DNA of 27,892 nt from an uncultured virus (IMG/VR IMGVR_UViG_3300032456_000001) (taxonomy: Duplodnaviria > Heunggongvirae > Uroviricota > Caudoviricetes): IMG/VR virus record IMGVR_UViG_3300032456_000001; one strand, written 5' to 3'. A program made the translations under genes and the position numbers. Under the pieces are notes generated by a model that did no database searches, was not told where the DNA came from, and saw only the letters and a list, made by a program, of their open reading frames with translations. Positions 3,294-25,748 of the stretch are shown here, in pieces; the stretch's first letter is position 1; each line of letters begins with the position of its first letter.

Positions 3294-3393
3294 GTGCTAA
3301 TTAAATTCTATACCGCTGCAACTCAACAAATAACTTATAATTGTTTGCCTTGTTTTGTTGACTCTAAGGATAGTTATTTATGATTACTGCCTT

Positions 3394-6300
3394 GTGGTTA
3401 CATCAGTAGGGTCAGTTTTATTTAGTGTAGGAGTTGATGCGTCAGGATTGGGAAGAAGTCTTGACGAAGCTCGTCGGAGCGTGGGAAACCCAAGCATAAA
3501 CATTCCCCTAATTATTGTTCCGCCTAGAATCCCAGAAATCCCGCCCATAGTTGTCCCGCCCATAATTGTTCCACCTATAGAGATTCCGCCAATAGACACA
3601 GCCGCTGCAATTGCTGGATTTCAGGCGTTGGCGGATGCAGCAAAATTTACCTTTGGGACTATAAAAGGGTTTGCAGAAGAAGGAATTAATACTTACAAAG
3701 GCTTTGAAGGCTCTCTTAACTCATTCCGTGCGGCAGCAGGTGCGAGTGCCGAAGAAGTAGCAGCACTTGAAAGAGAAGCGGTGTCTATTGGAATCGCGAC
3801 AACTAAAACAAGCAACGAGTCGGCAGAGGCTGCTGTTGAATTGGCAAAGCTGGGTTTCAGCGCTAAAGATACCGCTAAAAACTTACGCGGCTTAGTCGCA
3901 ATGGCAGAAGCCTCTGGCGCTAGTGTTAAAGTATCTGCTTCAGTTGTTGGTGCTGCTACCACTATTTACGGCAGAAGTGCCAACGAAATTGCAAACGTAG
4001 TTTCAGCCACGGCGGCGGCTGGTGCGATTGATGCGCCTGACTTTCTGCAAATATTGTCTCAAGCTGGTGCAGTTGCAAAAGCAAACAATCAAGACTTAGA
4101 AACCTTAGCAACAACTTTTAGTTTAGTTAGAGATGCCGGATTTAGTGCCTCAACTGCCGCCACAGCGGTAAAAACAGTTATTGGCAGACTTTCAGCACCT
4201 TCTACAAAAGAAGCGTCTGAAGCCATGAAAAAACTAGGGGTAGATATCCGAGATTCTACAACCGGAGAAATGCGAAATCTGGTTGAGTTAGTTCCAGAGT
4301 TTCGTTCTGCCCTTAATAAAATGCGACCAGACGAAAAGGCCAGTTTGGTAAGAATAATCTTTGGAGATGAAGGCGGGCCAGCCTTTCTTGGTTTACTAGG
4401 TCAAACTCAAGACAAAATAGACAAAACTTATACAAAAATCAAAAACGCTCAAAAAGGAGATTCTGGCGCAGGCTCAGCTATTGAACAACAAAAACAGTTA
4501 CAACAAGGTTTGGGGAATGCTACGGAACAGTTAAGTGGAAGTATAGACGCTCTAAAATTACAATTAGGAAAATCTCTTGCACCTTCACTAGCCGCAGCAG
4601 CAACAGCCGCCAATTCGCTTTTAGGTGTTTTTTTAAGTGCACCTGCACCAGTTCAAACATTAATTGGTGGAACAATCGCCCTTGTTACGGCTACATCTGG
4701 GTTGATTGTTGGCTATACCATTCTTGAGAAATTGCAGATTATCAAAACTGCACAAGAAATCGCCGGAGCCGCTGCAACTACTGCCGGAATTGTTGTTACA
4801 AAAGCTGCCGCTGCTGCTAAAACGGTTTACGCTTTAGCTACTACCCAAGTTACAGTTGCGATGGTCACAAATAATGCGGCAATGGCAGTTACCCAAATTC
4901 GGTTAGTAGCAATGACGGCGAACTATCTTCGCGCAACCATTGTAACTAACTTATTTGGGACATCCTCTTACTTTGCTGCTGTTGGTCTTGGTGGTATGGC
5001 AACTAGCGCTGCCTTGGCATTAGCACCTCTTGCAGCGTTGGGTGCAGCCATTGGATTGATTGCTATTGTCCAAAAAACTCAGGAAATGAAGGGGCTTAAC
5101 GTTGCGCTTGATGACCTACGAGCCAACACTGACATTGTGGGCAAGGCTGGAGTGGGTAGCGCTCAAGACTTAGGCAATGCTCAACGCACCCGTGCCAAAG
5201 CCACAACAGAAGGGCGAGGGTTGACAACGGTTGAGAAAGAAGCTGAGAAAAAAGCTTTAAAACGCGCAGATAATACTTTACCCCTGCTAGATAAACAATT
5301 AGAAGAAGCCAACGCCGTCCCCGAAGCCAAGGCAGGATTATTTGGCATAGGCGGAAACGAAGCCGAAGCTCAAAACAATGCGCGAAATGCTGCAATTGGT
5401 CAAATTAAAATGCAGATTGACCAAGTTAATCGGCAGAAAAAGTCAATTCAAGAATCAATTGAACTTGACAAGAAAAAAGCTGTACAGCAGGAAAAAGCAA
5501 AACCTACAGTTAACTCAGTTACAGAGGCAATTAAGAAACAATCAACAGCGCTTGAGGAAAAAGTCCTAAAGCAAAAATTTGCGATTGAAAGTGATTTGAC
5601 TGCTGGCAAAATCAATGAAAAAGAAGCCGCTAAAAGGCGGGCGGCAATCGAGTTACAAGCGGCAACAGACAAAGCAAGCTTTGCCAATAAGTCTGTTAAA
5701 AGTTTAGGCGACGCAAAGAAAGAGAAACCTGAAGATTTGGAGAAGCTGAAAGAAACTCAGAAAAAAGCCCAAGAGGAACTACTAAAGGCTCAACAAGAGG
5801 CTAACAAAACTCGTGCAGCGGCAGAGGAAGACCGGAAAAAGAAACAGTTAGACTCGTTTGAGGATAAGTTTAAAGGTAAACAGCAATCCATCCAAAAAGA
5901 CACGAGCGGTGCGACCTTAGAAGCTAAGCAGGCAGAGTTAGGCGGTACAAGTGCTGAAGCTACCTCTAAAAAAATTGAGGCAATTCAACAATCTCAGACT
6001 CGAAAAGAGATTGGACTACTAACTCAAAAACTAGCGGCTACCAAACAGTTGCAAGCCTCTGGCGTAATCACTGCCAAAGAGTCTGCTGACAGACAGGCTC
6101 AAATTGAGGAAGAGTTAACCAACAAAACTCTCGCATTAGTTGAAAAGCAAATCGTCGCCAAACGTAAAGCTGCCGTTGATGCGATTGAAGCGCGACTGTC
6201 CGAGCAAAGGTTACCTCTTGAACGGCAGGCGGCTGATTTAGGAGTTAAATCTCAAGACTTAGATTTGTCTGCTAAACAAGCTTCGGCGGCTGGAGGGGTT

Positions 6301-9300
6301 GACGATGCTCAATCCAAGTTAGACCAACAGCGTCTCGGTTTTCAGTTGCAGATTGCAGAACTCGCTGGAAACACCGCAAAACAGGAGGAGTTGAAAGAGG
6401 CAATTTATCAGAAACAGGTTAGTCATCTTGTAGCCTCTCAGGCACAGCAACGGGCTAGCGTAGGACTCGCACGTAAACAGCAGGAAATCGAGCTACAACG
6501 TCAAGAGATTTCAGCCAAGATTGCAATCATTGAGGCTCAGGCAGCTTTAGCTAAAGCTGTGGCGACAGGAGCCTCAACAGAGGAAGTTGCTGGATTAAAG
6601 CAAGCGCTAGGATTGCGAGGTCAGGCAGCCGCTCAAATTGGCAAAGTCAGAGCAAGCCAAGCTCAAGTCAATGCACTTGAAGATAAAAAGCTGTCTATTG
6701 AGCAGCGGACGACCAAGGAAAACTTAGAGCAAGGTCGAGCGATTGAGAAACAAAAAGAAGCTAGGCAGAAAGCTCTAGAGCAGATTGAACAAGCTGCCAA
6801 AGTTCAAGAGCGTACCAGTAAACTGGCAACCACAAATGAAACCCTTGGCGTTCGCAAGGCTGAACTTTCTGGCAGTATTTCAGCACAAGAAGCCGCCAAG
6901 CAAATTGAAGCAATTGGCGTTAAAACTGCTGAACGCGAACGCGGAATTTTAGAAAGTAAGTTGACAACCACGCGCCAAATGCGAGCGCAGGGCTTAATCT
7001 CTGTTAAGGAAGCCGCAGACCGCGAAGCACAGATTCAGCAAGATTTAACACAAGCAAGTCTCAACCTAATCGAGAAAGAACTCGCAGCCAAGAAAAAGGC
7101 GGCAACCGACGCAATTGAAGCACGGCTGTCTGAGCAGAAGCTACCTCTTGAGAAGCAAGCAGCCGATTTGGGGGTCAAGGGTCAAGACTTAGAATTAGTT
7201 GCGAAAAAACAAGGTGCAATAACTGGGGTACTAGAGGCTCAATCCAAACTAGACCAGCAACGATTAGGTTTTCAGTTACAATTGGCAGACCTCGCTAGTA
7301 ATACTGTTCAGCAAGAGCAACTGAAAGAAGCGATTTATCAACAGCAGTTAAAGTCCCTTGCTCAGTCACAAGAACAGCAAAAAGCAAATGTTGGACTAGC
7401 TCGTCAGCAGCAAGCCATCGAGTTACAGCGCCAGGAGATTACCGCAAAAATTGGTATTCTGGAAGCCGAAGCATCGTTAGCCAAAGCTAAAGCAACTGGT
7501 GCATCTAGTGGAGAGATTGCAGCCCTCAGTCAGGCTCTAGGACTACGGAATCAGGCACTCGGACAAATCAGTAAAGTCCGTTCTGCACAATCTGAAATCA
7601 ATAGTCTTGAAGACAAGAAACTGGCAATTGAGCAAAAGGCGACTCGTGAAAACCTAGAACAAACTCGCGCCATTGAAAAACAGAAAGAAGCCAAACAAAA
7701 AATAGTTGAAAAAATTGAAGAAGCTCTCAAAGTTCAAGAGCGTATCAGTAAGTTAACGACTACAACTGATACCTTGGCAATCCGTAAAGCCGAACTTGCT
7801 GGGGGATTATCAGCAGAAGATGCCGCTAAACAGATTGAAGCCGTCCAACTCAAAACAGCAGGGCGCGAGATTATCATCCTGCAAAATAAGTTAGTTGCAA
7901 CCCGTCAACTACGCGCTCAGGGCGTTATTTCTGCCAAAGAAGCCGCAAACAGAGAAGGGCAAATCCAGCAAGAATTAGCAGGTGCAAACCTTGGGCTGAT
8001 TGAGAAGCAGTTAGAAGCCAAGCGCAAAGCAGCCACCCTAGCAATTGAAATTCAATTAGCCGCGCAAAAACTAAGTCTTGAGAACGAGCTAAACACTCTT
8101 GACAGTCAGAAGTTTGGACTAGATCAACAGTCGCGCAAACAGGCAGCAGCGGGTGGTCTTACTTCTGCGGTATCCGACCTTGACAAGCAACGGTTGGAAT
8201 TCCAACTTGCTCTTGCAGATGCGTCCGGCGATGCCACCAGAGCTGAAGGAATTAAAAAGCAGATTTATGACCAGCAAGTAGCATCACTCGCAGTTCAGCA
8301 ACAAGCTCAACAGCAGTCACTAGCTATTAGCCAGAAACAGCAAGCAATCGAACTACAGCGCCAAAAAATTCAAGCTCAGATTGCCTTGTTTGAGTCTCAG
8401 GCGGCGGTTGAGAAAGCTAAGGCAACGGGTGCAGCGCCTCGCGAAATTGCAGCGTTAAAACAGGTTCAAGGTTTTCGAGAACAAGCACTCGCTCAAGTTG
8501 GGGAATCCGAAAAAGCTCAAAGTGAAATCAACCAACTTGAGCAGCAGCGGCTAAACATCGAACAACAAGGGGGACGGGAACGCCTAACACAGCAACAACA
8601 ACTTGAGGAAGTTCGCAAAGCAGCGCAAACCAAAAAAGACTCTGGTGGCAGTCTTAGTTCGACAAGCTCTGTACAGTCGTCAAATGTTTTTGATGCGTTT
8701 GGCAACGCAAAACCCGCTCTTGATCAAGTTAAAGTTGCCAAAGAGGTAGAGGACAAGAAACAGCAGCAAACCTTAACTGTCACCGCTCAAACTGCGATTA
8801 TTCAAGCTTTGGGAGCCGTACAAGCTGAAGGGTTAAAAGGTTTAGGGTTTGAAGCTCCCAAGGCTGCACCTGTTGCTGAAATGACTCCCGACTGGCTCAA
8901 AGGCATCAGTGCTGAAATTGGCAAACCTTTAGAAATCGCTAAGTCACTGCCAATTTTTGACGTTCCTGTTGACACCGTTTCAGCGGTTCCCGATGTTGAA
9001 ACAGCGAACAAATCCCTTGTAGCCGCTCAGAAGGCGATGGAGGATTATACTAAGAAATGGAATGCCGAAGCTAGAGCCGAAAACGAATTAGCGGCTCGTG
9101 ATTTCGCAAAAAGAAAAGGTATTAATTTCAATACCGAGGAAGGTAAGGTCAATGCTGCAATTGGAACAGCCGAGGAAGCCACCTTGGGAGGTTTGCGCGA
9201 AGCGAAAGCAGCAATGGAGCAGTTTGGGAAACCCGTTAATGGAGCTTTGAAAACATTTGAAGGTGGCCAGACTCCTATAACTGAACTTCAACGTTTGCAA

Positions 9301-9648
9301 CAACAATTAGACGAGGCAAGAGGGAATCAAGTCAAGGCTGAAGGAGAGGCAAACAAACCTAAAGGATTAGAGGCAACTGTTACTAGGATTTATGAGATAT
9401 TAGCAAAAAGATTAGGTGATGTAGCTCCATCTAATCAGCCCCCAATTGCTCCAAAGATTGATACCGAGGTCAAGCAAATTACAATGTCCCTAGAAGAAAC
9501 AGCAGGCAATATTTACAACTTACTCGAAACTATCTCGGACAAGTTAACTGGAATGGGTAAAGGCGGTGTCGGAAACCTTACTGTCGTTTCCCAGAATCCA
9601 GTAGCCGAATGTGCTGAAATCTTAAGCGCACTGGGTAGGAGAAGATAA
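3394..9648 (+). CDS. Phage tail tape measure protein (TP901-type core)
   Basis: Ala-rich N-terminal TMP core (ESAEAAVELAKLGF, GFSASTAATAVKT, IFGDEGG), hydrophobic segments, then a long coiled coil. GTG at 3394 is the likely start; the ORF is open from TTG at 3355. Confidence 0.95.
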   Translation: MVTSVGSVLFSVGVDASGLGRSLDEARRSVGNPSINIPLIIVPPRIPEIPPIVVPPIIVPPIEIPPIDTAAAIAGFQALADAAKFTFGTIKGFAEEGINTYKGFEGSLNSFRAAAGASAEEVAALEREAVSIGIATTKTSNESAEAAVELAKLGFSAKDTAKNLRGLVAMAEASGASVKVSASVVGAATTIYGRSANEIANVVSATAAAGAIDAPDFLQILSQAGAVAKANNQDLETLATTFSLVRDAGFSASTAATAVKTVIGRLSAPSTKEASEAMKKLGVDIRDSTTGEMRNLVELVPEFRSALNKMRPDEKASLVRIIFGDEGGPAFLGLLGQTQDKIDKTYTKIKNAQKGDSGAGSAIEQQKQLQQGLGNATEQLSGSIDALKLQLGKSLAPSLAAAATAANSLLGVFLSAPAPVQTLIGGTIALVTATSGLIVGYTILEKLQIIKTAQEIAGAAATTAGIVVTKAAAAAKTVYALATTQVTVAMVTNNAAMAVTQIRLVAMTANYLRATIVTNLFGTSSYFAAVGLGGMATSAALALAPLAALGAAIGLIAIVQKTQEMKGLNVALDDLRANTDIVGKAGVGSAQDLGNAQRTRAKATTEGRGLTTVEKEAEKKALKRADNTLPLLDKQLEEANAVPEAKAGLFGIGGNEAEAQNNARNAAIGQIKMQIDQVNRQKKSIQESIELDKKKAVQQEKAKPTVNSVTEAIKKQSTALEEKVLKQKFAIESDLTAGKINEKEAAKRRAAIELQAATDKASFANKSVKSLGDAKKEKPEDLEKLKETQKKAQEELLKAQQEANKTRAAAEEDRKKKQLDSFEDKFKGKQQSIQKDTSGATLEAKQAELGGTSAEATSKKIEAIQQSQTRKEIGLLTQKLAATKQLQASGVITAKESADRQAQIEEELTNKTLALVEKQIVAKRKAAVDAIEARLSEQRLPLERQAADLGVKSQDLDLSAKQASAAGGVDDAQSKLDQQRLGFQLQIAELAGNTAKQEELKEAIYQKQVSHLVASQAQQRASVGLARKQQEIELQRQEISAKIAIIEAQAALAKAVATGASTEEVAGLKQALGLRGQAAAQIGKVRASQAQVNALEDKKLSIEQRTTKENLEQGRAIEKQKEARQKALEQIEQAAKVQERTSKLATTNETLGVRKAELSGSISAQEAAKQIEAIGVKTAERERGILESKLTTTRQMRAQGLISVKEAADREAQIQQDLTQASLNLIEKELAAKKKAATDAIEARLSEQKLPLEKQAADLGVKGQDLELVAKKQGAITGVLEAQSKLDQQRLGFQLQLADLASNTVQQEQLKEAIYQQQLKSLAQSQEQQKANVGLARQQQAIELQRQEITAKIGILEAEASLAKAKATGASSGEIAALSQALGLRNQALGQISKVRSAQSEINSLEDKKLAIEQKATRENLEQTRAIEKQKEAKQKIVEKIEEALKVQERISKLTTTTDTLAIRKAELAGGLSAEDAAKQIEAVQLKTAGREIIILQNKLVATRQLRAQGVISAKEAANREGQIQQELAGANLGLIEKQLEAKRKAATLAIEIQLAAQKLSLENELNTLDSQKFGLDQQSRKQAAAGGLTSAVSDLDKQRLEFQLALADASGDATRAEGIKKQIYDQQVASLAVQQQAQQQSLAISQKQQAIELQRQKIQAQIALFESQAAVEKAKATGAAPREIAALKQVQGFREQALAQVGESEKAQSEINQLEQQRLNIEQQGGRERLTQQQQLEEVRKAAQTKKDSGGSLSSTSSVQSSNVFDAFGNAKPALDQVKVAKEVEDKKQQQTLTVTAQTAIIQALGAVQAEGLKGLGFEAPKAAPVAEMTPDWLKGISAEIGKPLEIAKSLPIFDVPVDTVSAVPDVETANKSLVAAQKAMEDYTKKWNAEARAENELAARDFAKRKGINFNTEEGKVNAAIGTAEEATLGGLREAKAAMEQFGKPVNGALKTFEGGQTPITELQRLQQQLDEARGNQVKAEGEANKPKGLEATVTRIYEILAKRLGDVAPSNQPPIAPKIDTEVKQITMSLEETAGNIYNLLETISDKLTGMGKGGVGNLTVVSQNPVAECAEILSALGRRR
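5840..8628 (+). repeat. Three diverged tandem repeats (930 bp / 310 aa) inside the tape measure gene
   Basis: AIEARLSEQ / AIEARLSEQ / AIEIQLAAQ start at 6181, 7111 and 8041, an exact 930-bp period. Outer boundaries are approximate. Confidence 0.9.
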
Positions 9649-10546: not shown

Positions 10547-10894
10547 CTAGAGAACTTTGAGCCCTTCTCTAGATGTTCGGACACAGGAGTTCCGAAACTC
10601 CTGCAAATTGACAGCGGGTAACGGAGAAAACCCGTCCTCTCCTTTTGTCATCGCAACCACTGACGGAAAATACCCCGTCAACCCGTGAATGGCCACCACT
10701 ACTAGTACTGACAGAGGCGCTAAGCCTGGTGGCACAATCACTACATCTTCGCTTCCGTCTCCTACAATGGAGGCTAAGTAGGCAATGAGTTTCTGGCAAA
10801 GCTCCGCGTCCGCTAGATCAACGTGAAGCTGATGATTAACAAACCCGTCGGCGGTTAAAACTGGATTGGGATGAGAAAAGTTTAGTTTAATCAT
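10547..10894 (-). CDS. csx15: Csx15-like protein (CRISPR-associated family; candidate cyclic-oligoadenylate ring nuclease or sponge), stand-alone
   Basis: Motifs LNFSHP (N-terminus), PPGLAPLSVLVVVAIHGLTGYFP and NLQEFR match the Csx15 pattern NFSHP...PPGxA...HGxxGxFP...NLQxxR as I recall it; not searched. Confidence 0.75.
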   Translation of the reverse strand: MIKLNFSHPNPVLTADGFVNHQLHVDLADAELCQKLIAYLASIVGDGSEDVVIVPPGLAPLSVLVVVAIHGLTGYFPSVVAMTKGEDGFSPLPAVNLQEFRNSCVRTSREGLKVL

Positions 10895-10959: not shown

Positions 10960-11391
10960 AGAAAAACTCGGTAAGTGGGAAACTCAGTATCTTCAGACCT
11001 GAGAGGGAAACGGCTCGGCGGTTTGAACCGCCTTGAATCTTTCCATTACCGCATTGGAGTTGCTTGACTTGGTGTACTTTTGTAATGTACTTTCAGCAGG
11101 ACAGTTACTACCTCAAATCTCACAACCCTGTACGCATAATGTTTGCTCTTTTGGAGCCTCCCTTGCGGGGTAATGTTTGCTTCGCCAATGTTTTCTGAGC
11201 TTTTTAGACCTGCAACACTGTTTCAGTGACTTTAAAACTGTTTAATTGCAGGCGACAGGGCAAGGAACTAGCTTCGCATTCCAGGGTGTCGTGACTCAAA
11301 AAACGTAGTCAGTTAAGACTTAGGCTGGTCAGAATAGCTTGCTTCAACTTTCGTCTTACAAGCTCAGTGGCTTTAGCCCTGAGTTTCTGAC
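10960..11391 (-). mobile_element. Non-autonomous IscB-type IS200/IS605 element (iscB deleted), 432 bp
   Basis: Matching 21-nt subterminal hairpins CTCAGT-N10-CTGAG at 10983-11003 and 11363-11383. On the minus strand it begins GTCA and is followed by ATGA (10956-10959), a known type of IscB TAM. The ATG CGT at 11137 after the RNA reaches a stop after 5 codons. Confidence 0.85.
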
Positions 11392-11624: not shown

Positions 11625-11644
11625 AATATTCCAACTCCGTAATT

Positions 11645-11706
11645 TTACTAGCCTCGTCAGTGGCAAAGTAGTAAGCTTTACCAGACACCTGAGAAGGTGT
11701 TTCGGC
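11645..11706 (-). ncRNA. Type II hammerhead ribozyme with loop I / 3' tail pseudoknot (copy 1)
   Basis: GCC-GAA-ACACCU(UCUC)AGGUGU-C^UGGUAAAG(CUUACUA)CUUUGCCA-CUGACGA-GGC-UAGUAA. Complete catalytic core with a GUC cleavage site at 11684/11683; loop UUACUA is complementary to tail UAGUAA. Confidence 0.95.
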
Positions 11707-12338: not shown

Positions 12339-12500
12339 TCTCCTTTGTTAGTTGTTTTTCGCTTAATAGCAAGTGGTTTTTTCTATCTGTTATTACTATA
12401 GGCTACTCGCTAGGACTTGTCAAGCGTTTTGGGAAAGTATTTTTCAAACGGTATCGAAAGCGTTGCTATGTATGGTGCTTAGCAGTTGTGTTCGCAAGTA
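12339..12500 (-). promoter_or_regulatory. Repeated promoter/leader/RBS module, copy A
   Basis: TTGACA (12418-12423), 17-nt spacer, TATAGT (12395-12400); RBS AGGAGA at 12339-12344. 150/162 identical to 13290-13451 by manual count. Confidence 0.9.
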
Positions 12501-12786
12501 GTGGACAGGACAACTCGTAGTAGAGCGCCGTGTCTACGCCATTTTCTTCCGGGTCATAGTCACTATCCTGCCACTCCAACCCGGCAATACTAGGGTGAAC
12601 GAGCCACCAATAAATCACAGAAGTAATTCCATAGAAGTAGACAGTTTCTTTCTCAAATTTCGTCCACCCTTGTGCGACGAGCTTTTCAGTAAACGCTATT
12701 TCCTCGGAGCTTTTTTCCGAATTTAGTAGCTCTAACGCTTGCTTGGCTAAGGTTAATTCCTGCTCTTTGCTAAATACAAAATCCAT
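12466..12786 (-). CDS. Hypothetical acidic protein (106 aa) downstream of hammerhead 2
   Basis: ATG at 12786 (MDFVFSKEQ...). The upstream ORF extension is ribozyme sequence. The last 11 codons lie inside promoter repeat A. Confidence 0.75.
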   Translation of the reverse strand: MDFVFSKEQELTLAKQALELLNSEKSSEEIAFTEKLVAQGWTKFEKETVYFYGITSVIYWWLVHPSIAGLEWQDSDYDPEENGVDTALYYELSCPLLANTTAKHHT

Positions 12787-12802
12787 TATTTTCTTTGTGA
12801 TT

Positions 12803-12864
12803 TTACTAGCCTCGTCAGTGGCAAAGTAGTAAGCCTTACCAGACACCTGAGAAGGTGTTTCGGC
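12803..12864 (-). ncRNA. Type II hammerhead ribozyme with pseudoknot (copy 2)
   Basis: Identical to copy 1 except for one stem I change (A-U to G-U, pairing kept). GUC cleavage site at 12842/12841. Confidence 0.95.
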
Positions 12865-13289: not shown

Positions 13290-13451
13290 TCTCCTTTGTT
13301 AGTTGTTTTTTGCTTAATAGCAAGTGGTTTTTTCTATCTGTTATCACTATAGGCTACCCACTAAGACTTGTCAAGCGTTTTGGGAAAGTATTCTTCAAAC
13401 GGTATCAAAAGTGTTGCTATGTATGGTACTTAGCGGTTTTGTTCACAAGTA
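13290..13451 (-). promoter_or_regulatory. Repeated promoter/leader/RBS module, copy B
   Basis: TTGACA (13369-13374), 17-nt spacer, TATAGT (13346-13351); RBS at 13290-13295. Confidence 0.9.
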
Positions 13452-13474
13452 TTGGTAGCGTCGGTGTAGGGATG

Positions 13475-13505
13475 TTGACGCGCTGGGTCAATCTCGTGAT
13501 ATAAT
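13475..13505 (+). promoter_or_regulatory. Putative promoter of the rep leader
   Basis: Extended -10 TGaTATAAT (13497-13505); TTGACG at 13475-13480 with a long 19-nt spacer. Confidence 0.65.
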
Positions 13506-13541
13506 CAAACAAGAAGCCACCCGTTATAAGCGGGTGGCTTC
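13505..13541 (-). terminator. Intrinsic terminator of the antisense RNA
   Basis: 11-bp perfect stem GAAGCCACCCG/CGGGTGGCTTC (13513-13541), followed on the minus strand by TTGTTTG. Confidence 0.7.
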
Positions 13542-13597
13542 AATCAAAAAATGTTGGATACAGCGGAACAAAACCTTGACAAGGTGGCGATTGTTCT
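13505..13597 (-). ncRNA. Predicted ~90-nt countertranscript (antisense) RNA to the rep leader
   Basis: Bounded by a near-consensus minus-strand promoter and a terminator, and lies wholly within the rep 5' UTR. Ends are approximate. Confidence 0.7.
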
Positions 13598-13603
13598 TTG
13601 TTA

Positions 13604-13632
13604 ATTGTAGCACCCCTGACGAACGTTGTCAA
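13604..13632 (-). promoter_or_regulatory. Promoter for the antisense RNA
   Basis: TTGACA (13627-13632), 17-nt spacer, TACAAT (13604-13609) with extended TG. Confidence 0.8.
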
Positions 13633-13703
13633 GTGCTATCAAATTAATTCTTAACAAGAGTCTCCTGCTGTATTCACCACAACTCTACACAAGGTGAATC
13701 GAT

Positions 13704-14192
13704 ATGGACACATCAAGACTAGGATACTTTGACGAAGATTTAGCTACCATCATCGGCGTAATTGAAGCCACCATGTTTAACAAGCTTCAGTGGTGTGTTG
13801 AGAGTCCTTCAATGGCTGGAACAGTCGTAGATGGGCAAAAGTGGATTCGCAACCCTATCAAGTGCACAGACCCTAAAAAGAAAGAGCGAGTACAAGAACA
13901 CGGCAAGTTTATTGACTGGCGCGGCAATTTTCCATTCTTGAGTTTTTATCAAATCAAGTCTGGATTTGCCAAACTTGAAGAACTCGGTTTAGTCATCAGT
14001 CGGAAGCTTCGAGCCGGAAAATGGGATGCCTGCAAGTATTACACCATCGACACAGAAAAGCTAGCTGAACTGCTGGAACCCGCATCACTACCCATTTGTC
14101 AAAATCCGTCAAATCGATATGTCGAATCTCAGCAAATCGATTTGATGACTGACTGCAAATCATATCAAGATACATCTTCAAAAAAAGTTATT
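13704..14192 (+). pseudogene. Phage replication initiator (N-terminal winged HTH), 5' part, interrupted by the IS605 element
   Basis: LAxxIGxxEA...W...FPFLS..QIK....LEELGLV...KYYTID pattern of phage replisome-organizer proteins. The ORF runs into the IS left end and stops at 14237. Confidence 0.8.
14094..14162. repeat. Three imperfect 23-bp iteron-like repeats (putative replication origin)
   Basis: ATTTGTCAAAATCCGTCAAATCG / ATATGTCGAATCTCAGCAAATCG / ATTTGATGACTGACTGCAAATCA. Each has an ATTTG...CAAAT dyad; the period is not a multiple of 3; an AT-rich tract follows. Confidence 0.7.
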
Positions 14193-14205
14193 CAACTAAG
14201 GCAGC

Positions 14206-14289
14206 AGGAGTCCCGCACTCTAATGGTACTCCGTTGAGTGACGGGAGGAGTCCCGCACTCTAATGGTACTCCGTTGAGTGACGGGAGGA
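14206..14289 (+). repeat. Exact 40-bp tandem duplication of the IS left-end hairpin
   Basis: AGGAGTCCCGCACTCTAATGGTACTCCGTTGAGTGACGGG occurs twice, followed by AGGA. Confidence 0.95.
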
Positions 14290-14367: not shown

Positions 14368-15573
14368 ATGAAACAAGTTCTGACAGTATCTTGCAAGCTC
14401 CAAGTGACACCTGAGCAGTCTATCAAAATTGATGCAACCTTTCAGGCGTTCGCGAGTGCTTGTGAATATGTGAATCAAACTGTGTCGCCAACCCTGACAA
14501 ACGAATTGGCGATGCAATCTTTGATATATCACGATGTCAGAGATATGTTTGGACTTTCGGCACAGTTGGCAATCCATGCTATTAGACGGGTTTCCGGCAA
14601 CAGAAAAACAGCCAAAAAAGATGGGAAACCGGTCAATAAATTTGCTCCTACTAGCGTCACTTACGATACCCGTATCTTTTCTTTCAGGGAGAAAGATTGG
14701 ACAGTAAGTTTGACTACTACTGGTGGCAGGGAGCGGTTTGTACTGGCTATTGGGAACTACCAACTTGGATTGCTGAAAGGTCAAAACCCCAAGACTGCTA
14801 CTTTGTGCAAACGCAAAGATGGTAGTTACTATCTCAATATTCAGCTTGAATCTCAACCAGCCGAGCCTCCACCAAGCAATCACGTTTTGGGCTGTGATTT
14901 GGGTAGGACTGATATTGCAGTTACTTCTGATGGAGATACATTTAGCGGTAAACAAATTACCCAAGTTAGAAATCATTATGCTAAGTTGAGAGAGAATCTC
15001 CAACGAAAAGCCACGAAAGGCACACGCAGCTCTCGGCGTAGATGTCGAGGATTGTTGAAACGGTTGTCGGGCAAAGAAAAACGCTTTCAGACCTTAGTAA
15101 ATCACACTATCAGTCACCGTATTGTAACGAAGGCTCACAACAAAAATCAAGTTATCGCTTTAGAAGATTTGACTGGGATTAGGGAGCGTACAAATCAGCA
15201 GCCACGCTCGAAGAAAGAGCGCAGACTTAGTAATAGCTGGGCATTTTTTCAGTTGCGTCAATTTCTGATTTACAAAGCTATAAAGCATAGCGTCAAGATT
15301 TTGTTTGTCGAGCCTAGGTACACCAGTCAAATGTGCCACAAATGCCATCACATTCATCCTGTAAAGGGTGAGTCTTATAGGAATGGCAAAAAGTTCGCTT
15401 GTGGTCATTGCGGATGGAAAGGTGATGCAGACTTAAATGGTAGTAAGAACATTGCTACTATTGGGGCTTCCGTAAATAAGCCTGAAGGTTCGAGATTATT
15501 TTGCCATTTGCAAGATCATTTCAGGGCTATTGAAAGCCCACACTGTACCTGTACTCAGGTCAGTGCTGGGTAA
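14368..15573 (+). CDS. tnpB: RNA-guided endonuclease TnpB
   Basis: RuvC-I GCDLG, RuvC-II ALEDL, zinc finger CHKC...CGHC and RuvC-III DADLNGSKNI; all catalytic residues present. TGaTATAAT ends 6 nt before the ATG, suggesting a leaderless mRNA. Confidence 0.97.
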   Translation: MKQVLTVSCKLQVTPEQSIKIDATFQAFASACEYVNQTVSPTLTNELAMQSLIYHDVRDMFGLSAQLAIHAIRRVSGNRKTAKKDGKPVNKFAPTSVTYDTRIFSFREKDWTVSLTTTGGRERFVLAIGNYQLGLLKGQNPKTATLCKRKDGSYYLNIQLESQPAEPPPSNHVLGCDLGRTDIAVTSDGDTFSGKQITQVRNHYAKLRENLQRKATKGTRSSRRRCRGLLKRLSGKEKRFQTLVNHTISHRIVTKAHNKNQVIALEDLTGIRERTNQQPRSKKERRLSNSWAFFQLRQFLIYKAIKHSVKILFVEPRYTSQMCHKCHHIHPVKGESYRNGKKFACGHCGWKGDADLNGSKNIATIGASVNKPEGSRLFCHLQDHFRAIESPHCTCTQVSAG

Positions 15574-22335: not shown

Positions 22336-23112
22336 CTAAATTGGAACTATAGCAAAAGTCGGATTAAACTTAACCTTGATTCTGTGAGTTTCCTTCATCC
22401 CTCTCCTGTCTAGAGCTTCCTGAATTGCTGATTGAATTAAAACAAAAAAATCAATTGCTAGTTTGTCGCCCGTAACAGAGTTTTCGTGTTTCCTGTATTG
22501 ATACAGATACTCATTTATTTTCCCTATTTCTGTAATTTCCGACAGTCGCAAGCAAATGTCATAGTCCTCAATTGTGTCAAATTCCGTGCGAAAACCACCA
22601 ATTTCTAGGTACGCAGATTTTCGCATCATTCGGAAATGAAACGCCATGAAAACCGATAAGATTCGCTCTTTAGAATACGGAATAGAACATCGCCAGCCGG
22701 GCCGCATTTTTTGCCCATTCGCATCAATATCTACATAATTTGTATACACCAACCCCCAGTCGGGATTATTGTCAAGCGCTGCGACTGTTAACTCGATTGC
22801 CTGTTGTTCCAGTAAATCATCAGAGTCAAGTTGCCCGACATACTCTCCCCGTGCCGCACTAAACCCCGCAATCAGCGCATTTGCAGCCCCTCTGTTAGCG
22901 TCATCTGCTGGTCTGTTGGGGTTGGTCAATACCCGAATTCTAGGGTCATGCTCCGCGAAGTTCTGGGCAATCTCTAAGCTCCCATCTGTGGAACCGTCAT
23001 CAGAAATTATCAGTTCCCAGTTTTTGTCTGTTTGCCAGATGACGCTTTCGATGGCGGTTTCAAGGTAACGCTTGCGGTTATAAACTGGGATAACAATAGA
23101 AACAAAAGTCAT
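22336..23112 (-). CDS. Glycosyltransferase family 2
   Basis: VSIVIPVYN, DDGSTD, LDSDD (DxD) and EDYDICLRL motifs. Confidence 0.95.
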   Translation of the reverse strand: MTFVSIVIPVYNRKRYLETAIESVIWQTDKNWELIISDDGSTDGSLEIAQNFAEHDPRIRVLTNPNRPADDANRGAANALIAGFSAARGEYVGQLDSDDLLEQQAIELTVAALDNNPDWGLVYTNYVDIDANGQKMRPGWRCSIPYSKERILSVFMAFHFRMMRKSAYLEIGGFRTEFDTIEDYDICLRLSEITEIGKINEYLYQYRKHENSVTGDKLAIDFFVLIQSAIQEALDRRGMKETHRIKVKFNPTFAIVPI

Positions 23113-23156
23113 ATAAATATACAGACAAATTATTCATCAAATATAGCAGATTCATG

Positions 23157-24047
23157 TTAATTTTGCGTTACACATTTATAGCCAAGCTTTTCTAAGTTGC
23201 GCCAATTTGTTAATTCAATATTTTCTACCTCTATGGCGCTTAATTCATTACGCCAAGCATCAATCCTTGCTGATTCAATTGGCTTAAAAGTCATTGGATT
23301 TAAACCAGCCTGACTTGGTAGCACTAAGTTCAACTCCGCATTCTTCTGATAGAACAACAGCATTGACTCGTCAAAATCCAAGCCTAGCCAGTTACACAAT
23401 TTTAATAATTCTATTGACGGATTTGCGACCAACTCTTCGTACCGAATCAGAAAGAATTGGTCGCAGTCGCGGTATTTCTCAACTAGCTTCGTTACGGCAT
23501 CCCACTGACGCGCCATTCCTTCTAAGTCTCTGGGGCCAGTCCAAACCTTTTCCGCTCTTAATTCTTTTGATAAAATTGCTTGCAATGAACTGTAGCAGGC
23601 TCGAAAATCTCGAAGAATCAAAACAACCCTAGCACTTGAAAAGTGTTTCCAAATTATTTCTAATTGGTGGATATGGCAAGGGTTTTTATCTCCCCAGACC
23701 AAAGAGGTTGGAGCAAACTGCTGAAGATAGCCTTGGTATACCGAGTTTATGGCTAGCGCATAGCTTAAAAAATTATATCTTTTTAAATCCCTAGATAAAG
23801 CTTGTCGATTGACACCCCACTGGCAAAATTTAGGAAATCTTGATTTGTCGTAAAGACTGTTTAAAAAATCTTCAATCTTGTTTGACAGGTTTCCGATGTT
23901 GCCGTACTCTTTTTCTAGAGAAATGAAAAAAAGACTTTCAGGAGGAATGCAAATACCCGGATGAGTCGTTAGCAGTAGTCGTAAAAGAGTCGTGCCAGAA
24001 CGTGGCGCTCCTGTTACAAAAATAGGGTTAACTTGGTGATTAAGCAT
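23157..24047 (-). CDS. Sulfotransferase (PAPS-dependent)
   Basis: 5'-PSB loop GAPRSGTTLL, WGDKNP, LRDFRACYSS and RYEELV motifs; ATG at 24047. Confidence 0.93.
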   Translation of the reverse strand: MLNHQVNPIFVTGAPRSGTTLLRLLLTTHPGICIPPESLFFISLEKEYGNIGNLSNKIEDFLNSLYDKSRFPKFCQWGVNRQALSRDLKRYNFLSYALAINSVYQGYLQQFAPTSLVWGDKNPCHIHQLEIIWKHFSSARVVLILRDFRACYSSLQAILSKELRAEKVWTGPRDLEGMARQWDAVTKLVEKYRDCDQFFLIRYEELVANPSIELLKLCNWLGLDFDESMLLFYQKNAELNLVLPSQAGLNPMTFKPIESARIDAWRNELSAIEVENIELTNWRNLEKLGYKCVTQN

Positions 24048-24082
24048 AAATACAAAGAATAACAACTGAAACTTTAAAAAAT

Positions 24083-24937
24083 TTATTTATAACTTGGCAT
24101 TTCCTTGATTTCTTGAATTGCACCCATCAAAAGTGGTTGAGTTACAGTTTTAAGTTGATGTTGCAAGATAGCAGTTTTAGCAGCATTCTGAGCAACTTTT
24201 ACAACCTGTGCAGCAGAGAATCCGTCCATTTCTGGCAGCAAAATATCCCAGTCTAACTCTTCCGTTTGAGTAGTTTTTGGAAAAGAAACTTGCAACGTAT
24301 GAACCAGTAGCAATTGAACTTCACGCTTGCTCGGTTTTGGTAGCTCAATCACGTCATCAAATCGTCGCCAAACCGCCGAATCTAAAGATTTGGTCAAGTT
24401 GGTTGCCATCACAATCAACCCATTGTCGGGATTGTATTCGTCTAAAACTTGCAAGAAAGTATTAACTATTCGCTTAACCTCGCCAACGTCTTTATTGTCT
24501 TCTCTTGTTCTGAGGATAGAATCACACTCATCGAAAAACAAAACGCATGGAGTTTCGCTAATCTCGTCAAAAACCTTTCTTAGATTCTTGGCTGTATCTC
24601 CTAAAAACGATGATAAAATTGAGTCAAATTGCACTTTAACCAGTGTTAAGCCAGTATTCCATGCTAGACGCTCGGCTCCAAGGGTTTTCCCACAACCAGG
24701 GACTCCGTACAACAGAATCTTTTGCCTGTAGTGCAGGTTGTGAACAGCCAATCTAGCTCGTGCTGCATACTCGCACTCAATGCGACGGAATCGGTCTTCA
24801 ACAGCATCGGGTAGCACCATGTCGTGCCGTAGTTTTTCTCGCTCTACAATTGTTGCCATTGATAACTTGTCTCGATTCAATGGTAATGGAATCAACGTCC
24901 TTTCAAGGATTGATTGTTTAGTGGCGGTTCTAGGCAT
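24083..24937 (-). CDS. AAA+ ATPase, IetA-like (family usually paired with an S8 protease)
   Basis: Walker A GVPGCGKT, Walker B FFDECD, sensor ATN and LDSAVWRRFD. LRHDMVLP...EYAAR.RL...AERLAWNTGL resembles the S8-associated ATPases as I recall them. Confidence 0.85.
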   Translation of the reverse strand: MPRTATKQSILERTLIPLPLNRDKLSMATIVEREKLRHDMVLPDAVEDRFRRIECEYAARARLAVHNLHYRQKILLYGVPGCGKTLGAERLAWNTGLTLVKVQFDSILSSFLGDTAKNLRKVFDEISETPCVLFFDECDSILRTREDNKDVGEVKRIVNTFLQVLDEYNPDNGLIVMATNLTKSLDSAVWRRFDDVIELPKPSKREVQLLLVHTLQVSFPKTTQTEELDWDILLPEMDGFSAAQVVKVAQNAAKTAILQHQLKTVTQPLLMGAIQEIKEMPSYK

Positions 24938-24971
24938 GATATTATTGTTTTAGTGTTATTAAAATTGTATC

Positions 24972-25748
24972 ATGCAACGATTCTTTTTAGTCGGATGTCC
25001 TCGCAGTGGCACGACAATTTTTCAAAGCTTATTAGCCGCGCATCCAGAAATCAATACATTTCCAGAAACTAAGATTTTTCAATACACCTTATGGGATGGA
25101 TTTCGGCACAAACTGCCTGAGCGGTTGCAGCGTTTCTTTTATTTTGAAATAATGCGTCCAGAGTTGCTAGAACCTTTTAGAGAATGTCAGACAACTGAAG
25201 AGAAGATAACATGGTTTATCGGCGTTTTGGATGGATTGACAATTGAGAACGAGAAAAATATCTGGGTAGAAAAGACACCCGAACATATATTTTTTATTCC
25301 TGAAATTCAGCGCCATGTTCCTGACGCAAAATTCATTCATATCACTAGAAACGGGTTAGATACAATTGCATCTTTGTGGGAAGCTACCCACATGACCGAA
25401 AATCAACTATGGGGCGGACAGTGGACGTTAAATCATTGTATACAGAGATGGAAAGATTCTATCAAAATCACCGAGAAGTACGCTGAGAACAAGAATCATT
25501 TGATGGTTGAATACGAACGACTAATCTCCCACAAAGTCGAGGTATTGACTGAGTGCTGTAATTTTGTCGGCATTGACTACAGCCCTGTCATGCTCACTGG
25601 TTACAAGTTCCAAGCTTTAAACCTGGGGGGAGGAATGCCGTGGCATCAGGGTATTGACAGAGATATTGAAGCACCCGCAATTCCTAAATACAAGAAAGTC
25701 TTTCAGCAGCAAGAGATTGAATATATCCTTGACAAAATTCAAGAGTAA
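24972..25748 (+). CDS. Sulfotransferase (PAPS-dependent)
   Basis: GCPRSGTTIF, WVEKTP, TRNGLDTIASL and EYERL motifs. Confidence 0.93.
   Translation: MQRFFLVGCPRSGTTIFQSLLAAHPEINTFPETKIFQYTLWDGFRHKLPERLQRFFYFEIMRPELLEPFRECQTTEEKITWFIGVLDGLTIENEKNIWVEKTPEHIFFIPEIQRHVPDAKFIHITRNGLDTIASLWEATHMTENQLWGGQWTLNHCIQRWKDSIKITEKYAENKNHLMVEYERLISHKVEVLTECCNFVGIDYSPVMLTGYKFQALNLGGGMPWHQGIDRDIEAPAIPKYKKVFQQQEIEYILDKIQE

Follow-up and report, generated by a model that had tools for sequence, protein, structure and literature searches.

A putative translational switch, operated by a countertranscript, ahead of the replication-initiator gene in a tailed phage, probably of filamentous cyanobacteria

How the supply of a phage replication initiator might be adjusted to the number of genomes present is the question raised by a leader in the stretch of DNA analysed here, 27,892 nucleotides of an uncultured tailed phage (IMG/VR IMGVR_UViG_3300032456_000001; hereafter, the window). 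The leader precedes a replication-initiator gene and carries promoter-like signals on both strands and two competing helices. Plasmids count their copies by antisense-RNA attenuation of initiator synthesis, and a preliminary description of the window had read this leader as a plasmid-like attenuator of that kind. Our analysis showed that the leader element is a real, conserved and well-supported regulatory element. The switch between its two alternative folds is very probably genuine, and we consider it reasonably likely that the whole mechanism, in which an antisense RNA operates the switch, is correct; the antisense RNA itself is predicted from sequence signals.

From these features we infer the synthesis of an antisense RNA, its binding and its effect on translation, as follows. 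A rightward promoter would give rise to a leader of about 192 nt beginning with a stable hairpin (H1). Left alone, the leader would pair an upstream segment, A, with a downstream segment, B, so that the Shine-Dalgarno (SD) sequence and AUG (segment C) stay open and the initiator is translated. From a convergent promoter inside the leader would come an antisense RNA of about 90 nt, ending at the same hairpin read as a terminator; it would match the initial ~86 nt of the leader, A among them, with perfect complementarity, and its single-stranded middle would mimic B. By pairing with the nascent leader before B is made, this countertranscript would remove A, leaving B to pair with C and the start codon and thereby blocking translation. 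As the inhibitor would be produced from every genome copy, initiator synthesis would be limited as template number rises.

The two alternative folds rest on the following observations. The preliminary description had proposed two mutually exclusive pairings, one between UGGAUACAGCGG (13555-13566) and CUGCUGUAUUCA (13665-13676), the other between AUUCACC (13672-13678) and GGUGAAU (13693-13699), which would hide the AAGGUG ribosome-binding site (13691-13696) ahead of the ATG at 13704. Its coordinates all agree with the window sequence, and folds, duplex shuffles and covariation established both pairings as real, conserved and covarying. The minimum free energy (MFE) of the 214-nt leader is -72.7 kcal/mol against -45.95 ± 4.05 in 200 shuffles, none of which was as good (z -6.60). 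This structure comprises H1, the A:B helix, a pairing of the antisense-covered stretch with the region upstream of B, and an internal hairpin, H2. Within it the first proposed pairing is extended to 13552/13679, and the A:B duplex of the window is better than 499 of 500 shuffles.

Five distinct close versions of the element were compared: that of the window, that of locus L001, the initiator copies shared by L002/L003 and by L004/L005, and an extra complete copy in L002/L003. The free-leader MFE contains A:B in all five, and barring the antisense-covered part from pairing makes the MFE pair B with the SD, again in the window and the four others. Cofolding of the window leader with a 93-nt antisense RNA likewise placed 13665-13678 against 13693-13706, covering SD and AUG. 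Blocking the target raised the opening energy of the window SD from 3.9 to 6.7 kcal/mol and that of the translation initiation region (TIR) from 5.3 to 9.4 kcal/mol; over the five close versions the SD and TIR opening energies rose by 1.5-6.7 kcal/mol. The earlier proposal that the antisense RNA favours the occluded fold was thus borne out in silico. The sequence that follows the induced B:C hairpin, CGAUAUGG, has no U-run past 13699, and the terminator scan reported no plus-strand terminator there. The predicted effect is therefore translational, and transcriptional attenuation of the pT181/pIP501 type was rejected. Two other suggestions fell away: a helix between CUUGACAA and UUGUCAAG, described as enclosed by the first pairing, is present as sequence but is unused in the MFE and not conserved in the L002 or L004 versions, and a leader peptide (17-codon open reading frame (ORF), 13551-13604) was rejected as a conserved feature, the L004 type having no ATG there.

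Covariation among the close versions supports both folds. A MAFFT alignment puts indels inside B, with which RNAalifold sees 7 of the 12 A:B pairs, and the versions were realigned with covariance models, the alignment for the OFF structure (B:C) being restricted to matches with E ≤ 1e-5. For the ON structure (A:B), 86.3% of 227 cells were paired, as against 35-44% when the partners were slid by 1-3 columns; double changes occurred in 6 pairs as against 0-2 when slid, and none of 500 shuffles reached the covariation score. Most of the "other" cells in helix 3 come from the extra L002 row, which is misregistered in this alignment (posterior ~0.5). One A:B pair changes from G-C to A-U and two others pass through G-U, A-U and G-C, and the duplex beats 493-500 of 500 dinucleotide shuffles in 5/5 close versions. 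For the OFF structure, all 35 cells of the seven B:C pairs are paired, and the L002 version shows two double changes (U-A to C-G and C-G to A-U), although these convert its AAGGUG to AAGUUG and weaken the SD. H2 shows U-A to C-G and A-U to G-C double changes together with G.U pairs on the plus strand (RNAalifold, pair counts). Taken as duplexes, the B:C pairings are matched by 83, 42, 4, 13 and 21 of 500 shuffles across the five versions, and in L001 the best duplex of this test is a different pairing. The support for B:C lies in covariation, because duplex strength alone is not significant in the window.

These patterns bear on a reading of the region as DNA, according to which its inverted and direct repeats would be origin iterons or repressor operators. 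The region is indeed a control hub between divergent early operons, and a palindrome-like CTTGNCAAG occurs three times, at 13368, 13575 and 13626; the copy at 13575 is, however, not conserved in the L002 or L004 versions. On the opposite strand the G.U pairs of A:B and H2 would read C.A, so that the selected structure is that of a plus-strand RNA. The preservation of pairing through G.U intermediates and double changes makes sense only in such an RNA, and the folding z-score of -6.6 points the same way. We regard the DNA-site explanation as highly improbable.

The antisense target is the most diverged segment between the types, with 46-52% identity compared with 93-94% for H1 and 86-93% for the SD region, a pattern that would look like that expected of specificity determinants. 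The initiator leader of L002/L003 (L002:2781-3023) carries UUGGAU three times in tandem in segment A and once more in segment C, and a duplicated CAACCG after B; these repeats make several A:B pairing registers possible in L002/L003.

We then considered the signals from which the antisense RNA is predicted. The convergent promoters and countertranscript terminator put forward earlier were found by a consensus scan and by a scan of our own, and they are conserved. The rule of the former allows spacers of 16-18 nt and skips the 19-nt sense promoter; our scan was widened to 16-19 nt. Over both strands of the whole 27.9-kb window only four sites reach at least 11/12, where 200 shuffles averaged 1.0 and never exceeded 5. 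Three of these four best promoter-like sites lie within 13346-13632, namely the sense and antisense promoters and a leftward early one at 13374. The -35, TG and -10 of the sense promoter are retained in 5/5 close versions. The minus-strand terminator (13541..13513) has 11 pairs, 8 of them G-C, and the tail TTGTTTGATT. Its stem is kept in 5/5 close versions, with one C.A on the plus strand (G.U on the minus strand) in two versions and one U.G (A.C on the minus strand) in one. The predicted countertranscript has a 5' stem-loop, a single-stranded spacer of ~24 nt that mimics segment B, the terminator hairpin and a U-rich tail, and its fold scores -29.0 (z -3.66). Coordinates are collected in Table 1.

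Table 1. Positions of the leader elements, promoters and neighbouring coding segments in the window
Feature	Position	Strand	Description and basis
Sense promoter	13475-13505	+	TTGACG (13475-80), 19-nt spacer, extended -10 TGaTATAAT (13497-13505); 11/12 with TG; predicted start near 13512
Antisense promoter	13632..13604	-	TTGACA-17-TGcTACAAT; 11/12 consensus with upstream TG (consensus scan)
H1, bidirectional G+C-rich hairpin	13513-13541	both	+: 5'-terminal stem-loop of the leader; -: intrinsic terminator of the predicted countertranscript
Predicted untranslated leader of the initiator mRNA	13512-13703 (~192 nt)	+	-10-to-ATG distance; fold
Predicted countertranscript	13597 to ~13505 (~90 nt)	-	Promoter and terminator positions; fold
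Segment A (anti-sequestor / pre-emptor)	13552-13566	+	Within the antisense target; pairs with 13665-13679 in the MFE; compensatory changes
Segment B (shared partner)	13665-13678	+	Pairs with A (ON) or C (OFF); folds and covariation
Segment C	13691-13706	+	SD AAGGUG and AUG, sequestered by B in the OFF fold
H2, internal leader hairpin	13600-13648	+	Contains the antisense promoter sequence; MFE, RNAalifold, pair counts
177-aa ORF	13704-14237	+	Truncated O/DnaD-like phage replication initiator; N-terminal winged-helix portion
TnpB-bearing segment	14196-15578	+	tnpB 14368-15573; 2 x 40-nt tandem repeat 14206-14285; Pfam OrfB_IS605, Cas12f1-like_TNB
Initiator remnant, last ~56 codons	15579-15737	+	tblastn 419-474, 89% identity; blastn

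A TAnnAT -10, a TTGAC motif and, on the minus strand, a hairpin ending in a U-rich tail stand at matching distances in 8/8 versions, three distant ones included (see below), and in all of them the terminator hairpin of the predicted antisense RNA is preceded by unpaired or weakly paired sequence complementary to the target. These data have to be set against the possibility of a self-contained cis-acting RNA switch, in which A:B and B:C would respond to temperature, to a protein such as the initiator, to a ligand or to transcription-translation kinetics, the minus-strand "promoter" being conserved only through H2. In its favour, no part of the finding is better supported than the two alternative helices, the antisense RNA is known here as sequence signals only, and H2 covaries on the plus strand over the -10 and the region upstream of the -35, whose spacing varies from 15 to 19. 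Against such a switch stands the co-occurrence of the three signals in every version, since three of the eight have an unrelated leader. The TGTCAA of the -35 is moreover invariant in the L004 type although that type has lost 3 of the 6 apical H2 pairs surrounding this motif, whose conservation thus finds no explanation in RNA pairing. The antisense promoter, with its TG, is also one of the only four window sites of its quality, and Rfam gave no riboswitch or thermometer match. A purely cis-acting switch thus seems unlikely to us.

Another explanation places the action of the leftward promoter at the level of DNA or transcription, through convergent interference with the sense promoter 90-130 bp away or through read-through into the leftward early genes, RNA pairing being secondary. 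The antisense transcript would end within the -10/+1 region of the sense promoter, and convergent transcription matters in pIP501, as far as a review's account of that plasmid goes (PMC5703833). Termination may also leak, the U-tail being interrupted (TTGTTTGATT), and leftward genes and another leftward promoter lie just beyond. The 11-12-bp G+C-rich stem is nevertheless a strong terminator, and the leftward genes have 11/12 promoter cassettes of their own. Interference or read-through would leave unexplained both the covariation of A, B and C and the constant inclusion of A in the antisense target, and we judge this explanation distinctly unlikely.

Several points weigh against operation of the switch by a countertranscript or limit the evidence for the switch itself. 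The spacing between the -35-like motif and the -10 of the antisense promoter is 17, 18, 19, 19, 19, 15, 15 and 17 in the eight versions, so the -35 cannot work alike in all of them; the TG has moved in L001 and is missing from L051, and the leader hairpin H2 accounts for part of the conservation of this promoter. Promoters were judged by the E. coli sigma-70 consensus, and the host is probably a cyanobacterium. For the folds, the 7-bp B:C duplex of the window is not significant alone (83/500 shuffles as good), L001 has a C.U mismatch in A:B, and the distant locus L046 has a B:C no better than chance (337/500 shuffles as good). The predicted contrast in SD accessibility is moderate, since GGUG forms a weak local hairpin with the early codons and leaves the SD of the free leader partly closed (opening energy 3-4.5 kcal/mol). 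The close versions number only five and stem from about three lineages, and pairs were counted on alignments that had themselves been fitted to the structures. The window has a truncated copy of the regulated gene. Finally, two poly(A) RNA libraries (one study; 6% of sampled words) yielded only assembled contigs of relatives, without strand or ends. These are L002- and L004-like, with 85-99% likeness, and cover 13585-14195; lacking strand, start or end, they are silent on the antisense RNA. The same contigs contain an inverted junction (13484/13706) and loose ends, which look like a different arrangement in the relative or an effect of assembly.

The element was recovered in only four viral contigs by viral scans with the protein and three DNA patterns. 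The metagenome scan returned three contigs only, all regarded as already known, two of them equal in length to viral contigs of this set, with no new copies. The genome scan by protein gave no match, and that by hairpin pattern gave 11 loci, of which the two cyanobacterial ones, the ones that were aligned, proved to be unrelated hairpins. The phage GenBank collection contained no DNA match to the window, and the record nearest to it, G001, is a fragment of 11 kb that lacks this region.

Does the arrangement extend beyond close relatives? Distant loci, gathered with a profile of Rep homologues, encode initiators that are 35-57% identical. At L045 (57% Rep identity) the layout is the same and the sequences of A, B and C are unrelated, A and C being near-copies that both pair with B. 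Its signals are a TGnTACTAT sense -10, an GAAGCCCCGC... hairpin at +1, and plus-strand ATTGTAGCAC and TGTCAAG, which correspond to leftward TGcTACAAT and TTGACA. The A:B duplex of L045 was reached by 0/500 shuffles and B:C by 3/500, and blocking the antisense target raised its SD opening energy from 3.0 to 11.2 kcal/mol. For L046, 1/500 shuffles reached A:B and the opening energy went from 3.1 to 7.3; in L051 a leftward TTGACG-17-TATAAT is accompanied by a minus-strand hairpin that runs into nine U, and the opening energy rises from 3.2 to 6.0. Target blocking thus raised the SD/TIR opening energy in 3/3 distant versions. Judged by these comparisons, the same predicted switch logic recurs with unrelated sequence, clearly in L045 and partly in L046 and L051. 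The paralogue loci L048-L050 have a short leader with the 5' hairpin only, and antisense signals were not found there. L045, L050 and L053 belong to one 188.9-kb viral record, and L046 and L049 to one of 188.6 kb; such ~188-kb records hold two or three paralogous initiator genes each, with the antisense cassette on only one paralogue.

The element is also found away from the initiator. L002 (positions 1606-1866; also L003) carries a second complete cassette of promoter, hairpin, antisense signals and switch. Its specificity type is that of L004, and it precedes a 259-aa ORF (L002:1844-2623) that is unrelated to the initiator. This ORF has no Pfam or PHROG match, and no relative of it was found in the window or the other loci searched. 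About 1 kb further upstream lies a third, partial copy that consists of the promoter only (L006). One relative therefore has two cassettes of different specificity type, on the initiator and on the 259-aa gene, and another has the second type on its own initiator: the cassette serves repeatedly and is exchanged among genes and among phages. Such a portable cassette with exchangeable specificity might, beyond dosing the initiator in a lytic cycle, let the diffusible countertranscript shut off the initiator of any phage of its own type that enters the cell. Virulent phages would then be incompatible, or exclude one another from superinfection, by way of RNA, and the target segment would be driven to diversify; we offer this idea as speculative and unlikely. 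If the countertranscript is real, the element would be a template-number-sensing brake on replication initiation in this cyanophage group, a compact, sequence-programmable translational switch working in cyanobacteria, and an example of regulatory cassettes swapped between genes and phages.

Conservation around the sense promoter has a further feature. None of the ~30 nt that run up to and include its -35 (13444-13480) varies among the close versions, and 24 reappear at every extra promoter copy in L002/L003, a conservation far beyond what the -35 alone requires. Two direct repeats lie on the leftward side. The first, of 166 nt (92% identity; 12339-12504 and 13290-13455), bears a leftward TTGACA-17-TATAGT promoter, a cassette that recurs ahead of one leftward early gene after another; three copies of part of it are found in L005. 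The second, of 68 nt (97% identity; 11639-11706 and 12797-12864), lies at the 5' ends of two leftward ORFs.

The downstream gene had been called rep, and it is a relative of phage replication initiators, although the window retains only the N-terminal third of the full protein, the middle having been replaced by a TnpB element. The 177-aa protein matches phrog_11233 (replication initiation protein, E 1.1e-10) and phrog_6493 (DnaD-like helicase loader, E 8e-9), and its N-terminal winged-helix domain also matches phrog_9773 (O-like). A full-length relative matches phrog_11233 with E 2.7e-12 over profile positions 5-228 of 297. With the 177-aa protein, tblastn gave matches of 27-34% identity in 10 phage records, to genes annotated as initiator, O-like or primosomal. 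No match was obtained in Pfam for the 177-aa or the 473-aa protein, nor in NCBIfam or PDB sequences. AlphaFold modelled the full-length initiator with low confidence (mean pLDDT 54.9), and Foldseek returned only generic winged-helix rows (E ≥ 0.08).

Full-length relatives have 473-474 aa (L002, L005). Breakpoints mapped by blastn against the intact L005 gene showed that the TnpB segment replaces, and does not just interrupt, ~771 bp corresponding to initiator codons ~165-421, so that residues 1 to ~164 and 419-474 only are retained; the stop codon of tnpB and the junction with the surviving 3' end of the initiator gene are 5 bp apart. L001 shares this replacement, and its record is a complete 83.9-kb genome with terminal repeats, which suggests that the phage seems to live with a truncated initiator.

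A TP901-type tape measure gene (3355-9648) and tail-fibre-like proteins mark the window as phage DNA, and the complete relatives are phage genomes of 84-92 kb. The preliminary description had considered that the element might be a phage-plasmid with plasmid-like copy-number control, an idea that finds no support. The nearest complete relative, G002, has direct terminal repeats, a feature that fits a packaged phage genome and is neutral as to a prophage state; the 83.9-kb record that contains L001 has direct terminal repeats and is rated 100% complete. Phage_integrase had no match in 8/8 of the relatives' records searched, AAA_31 none in four and Resolvase none in two; CbiA gave none above the cut-off in six (one 16-bit sub-threshold match, in G009), and ParM, TubZ and protelomerase were not searched. 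The phage group is apparently non-temperate. The named Rep homologues, three from Microcoleus spp. and one from a Xenococcaceae metagenome-assembled genome (MAG), point to filamentous cyanobacteria, probably Microcoleus-like, as the hosts.

Elsewhere in the window, a full-length HEARO RNA at 11170-11391 (-) scores 161 bits against a gathering score of 83. Downstream of it on the same strand, an ORF of 115 aa (10547-10894) matches CRISPR-associated Csx15 (NF040560, E 1e-11) and not an IscB-type nuclease. At 22336-25748, a family-2 glycosyltransferase, two sulfotransferases and an AAA ATPase are clustered beside tail-fibre-like genes.

How, then, does the element compare with known systems? HEARO is the only Rfam family that passes its gathering score in the window. 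Searched at E ≤ 10, the leader gave no match above 21 bits, where gathering scores are 43-90, and no riboswitch, thermometer or countertranscript RNA family. Among phages, the lytic replicon of P1 (repL) is reportedly controlled by an antisense RNA from promoter P53as. The phage antisense RNAs treated in a 2025 review of phage small RNAs include OOP, sar, sas, c4 and aQ, OOP starting near the replication gene O (PMC12197685). As portrayed there, lambda OOP, P22 sar and sas, P1/P7 c4 and lambda aQ resemble the predicted countertranscript as short cis-encoded RNAs that control a neighbouring gene; they differ in that their targets are cII, ant or Q and not an initiator leader, and the portions of the review that treat them describe no anti-sequestor/sequestor exchange (PMC12197685). 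Literature searches, and the same portions of that review, yielded no description of such control on a tailed-phage or cyanophage initiator (PMC12197685).

The plasmid systems are closer. The pT181 RNAI follows a "pre-emptor" logic with termination, according to a review section (PMC5703833). As in pT181 RNAI and pIP501 RNAIII, a pre-emptor (A) and the 3' arm (C) would be rivals here for pairing with the 5' arm (B), the pre-emptor being sequestered by the antisense RNA; the induced hairpin of those plasmids is a terminator, whereas the one predicted here covers SD and AUG and has no U-run. The RNAI of pSK41, as summarized in the same section, is a countertranscript of ~83 nt whose pairing site lies ~100 nt ahead of the rep initiation region; once bound, it causes a stem-loop to form that conceals the ribosome-binding site and does not terminate transcription, and the pSK41 Rep is called DnaD-like (PMC5703833). 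The predicted counterparts here are a countertranscript of ~90 nt, a target that ends ~107 nt upstream of the AUG, a B:C helix over SD and AUG without a U-tract, and a gene that matches a DnaD-like loader PHROG. The pSK41-type logic claimed in the preliminary description fits this account (PMC5703833), and the predicted element works like pSK41 in every feature examined in silico. The two differ in other respects: there is no homology, with no RepA_N match in Pfam and no Rfam match; the element lies in a tailed phage and not in a plasmid; the terminator doubles as the 5' hairpin of the mRNA; and the module also stands upstream of a second, unrelated gene. Countertranscript attenuators are thus a known kind of regulator, and what is new in the one proposed here is its setting in the early region of an apparently non-temperate cyanophage group; notable besides are the single hairpin that would serve both transcripts and the repeated use of the cassette.

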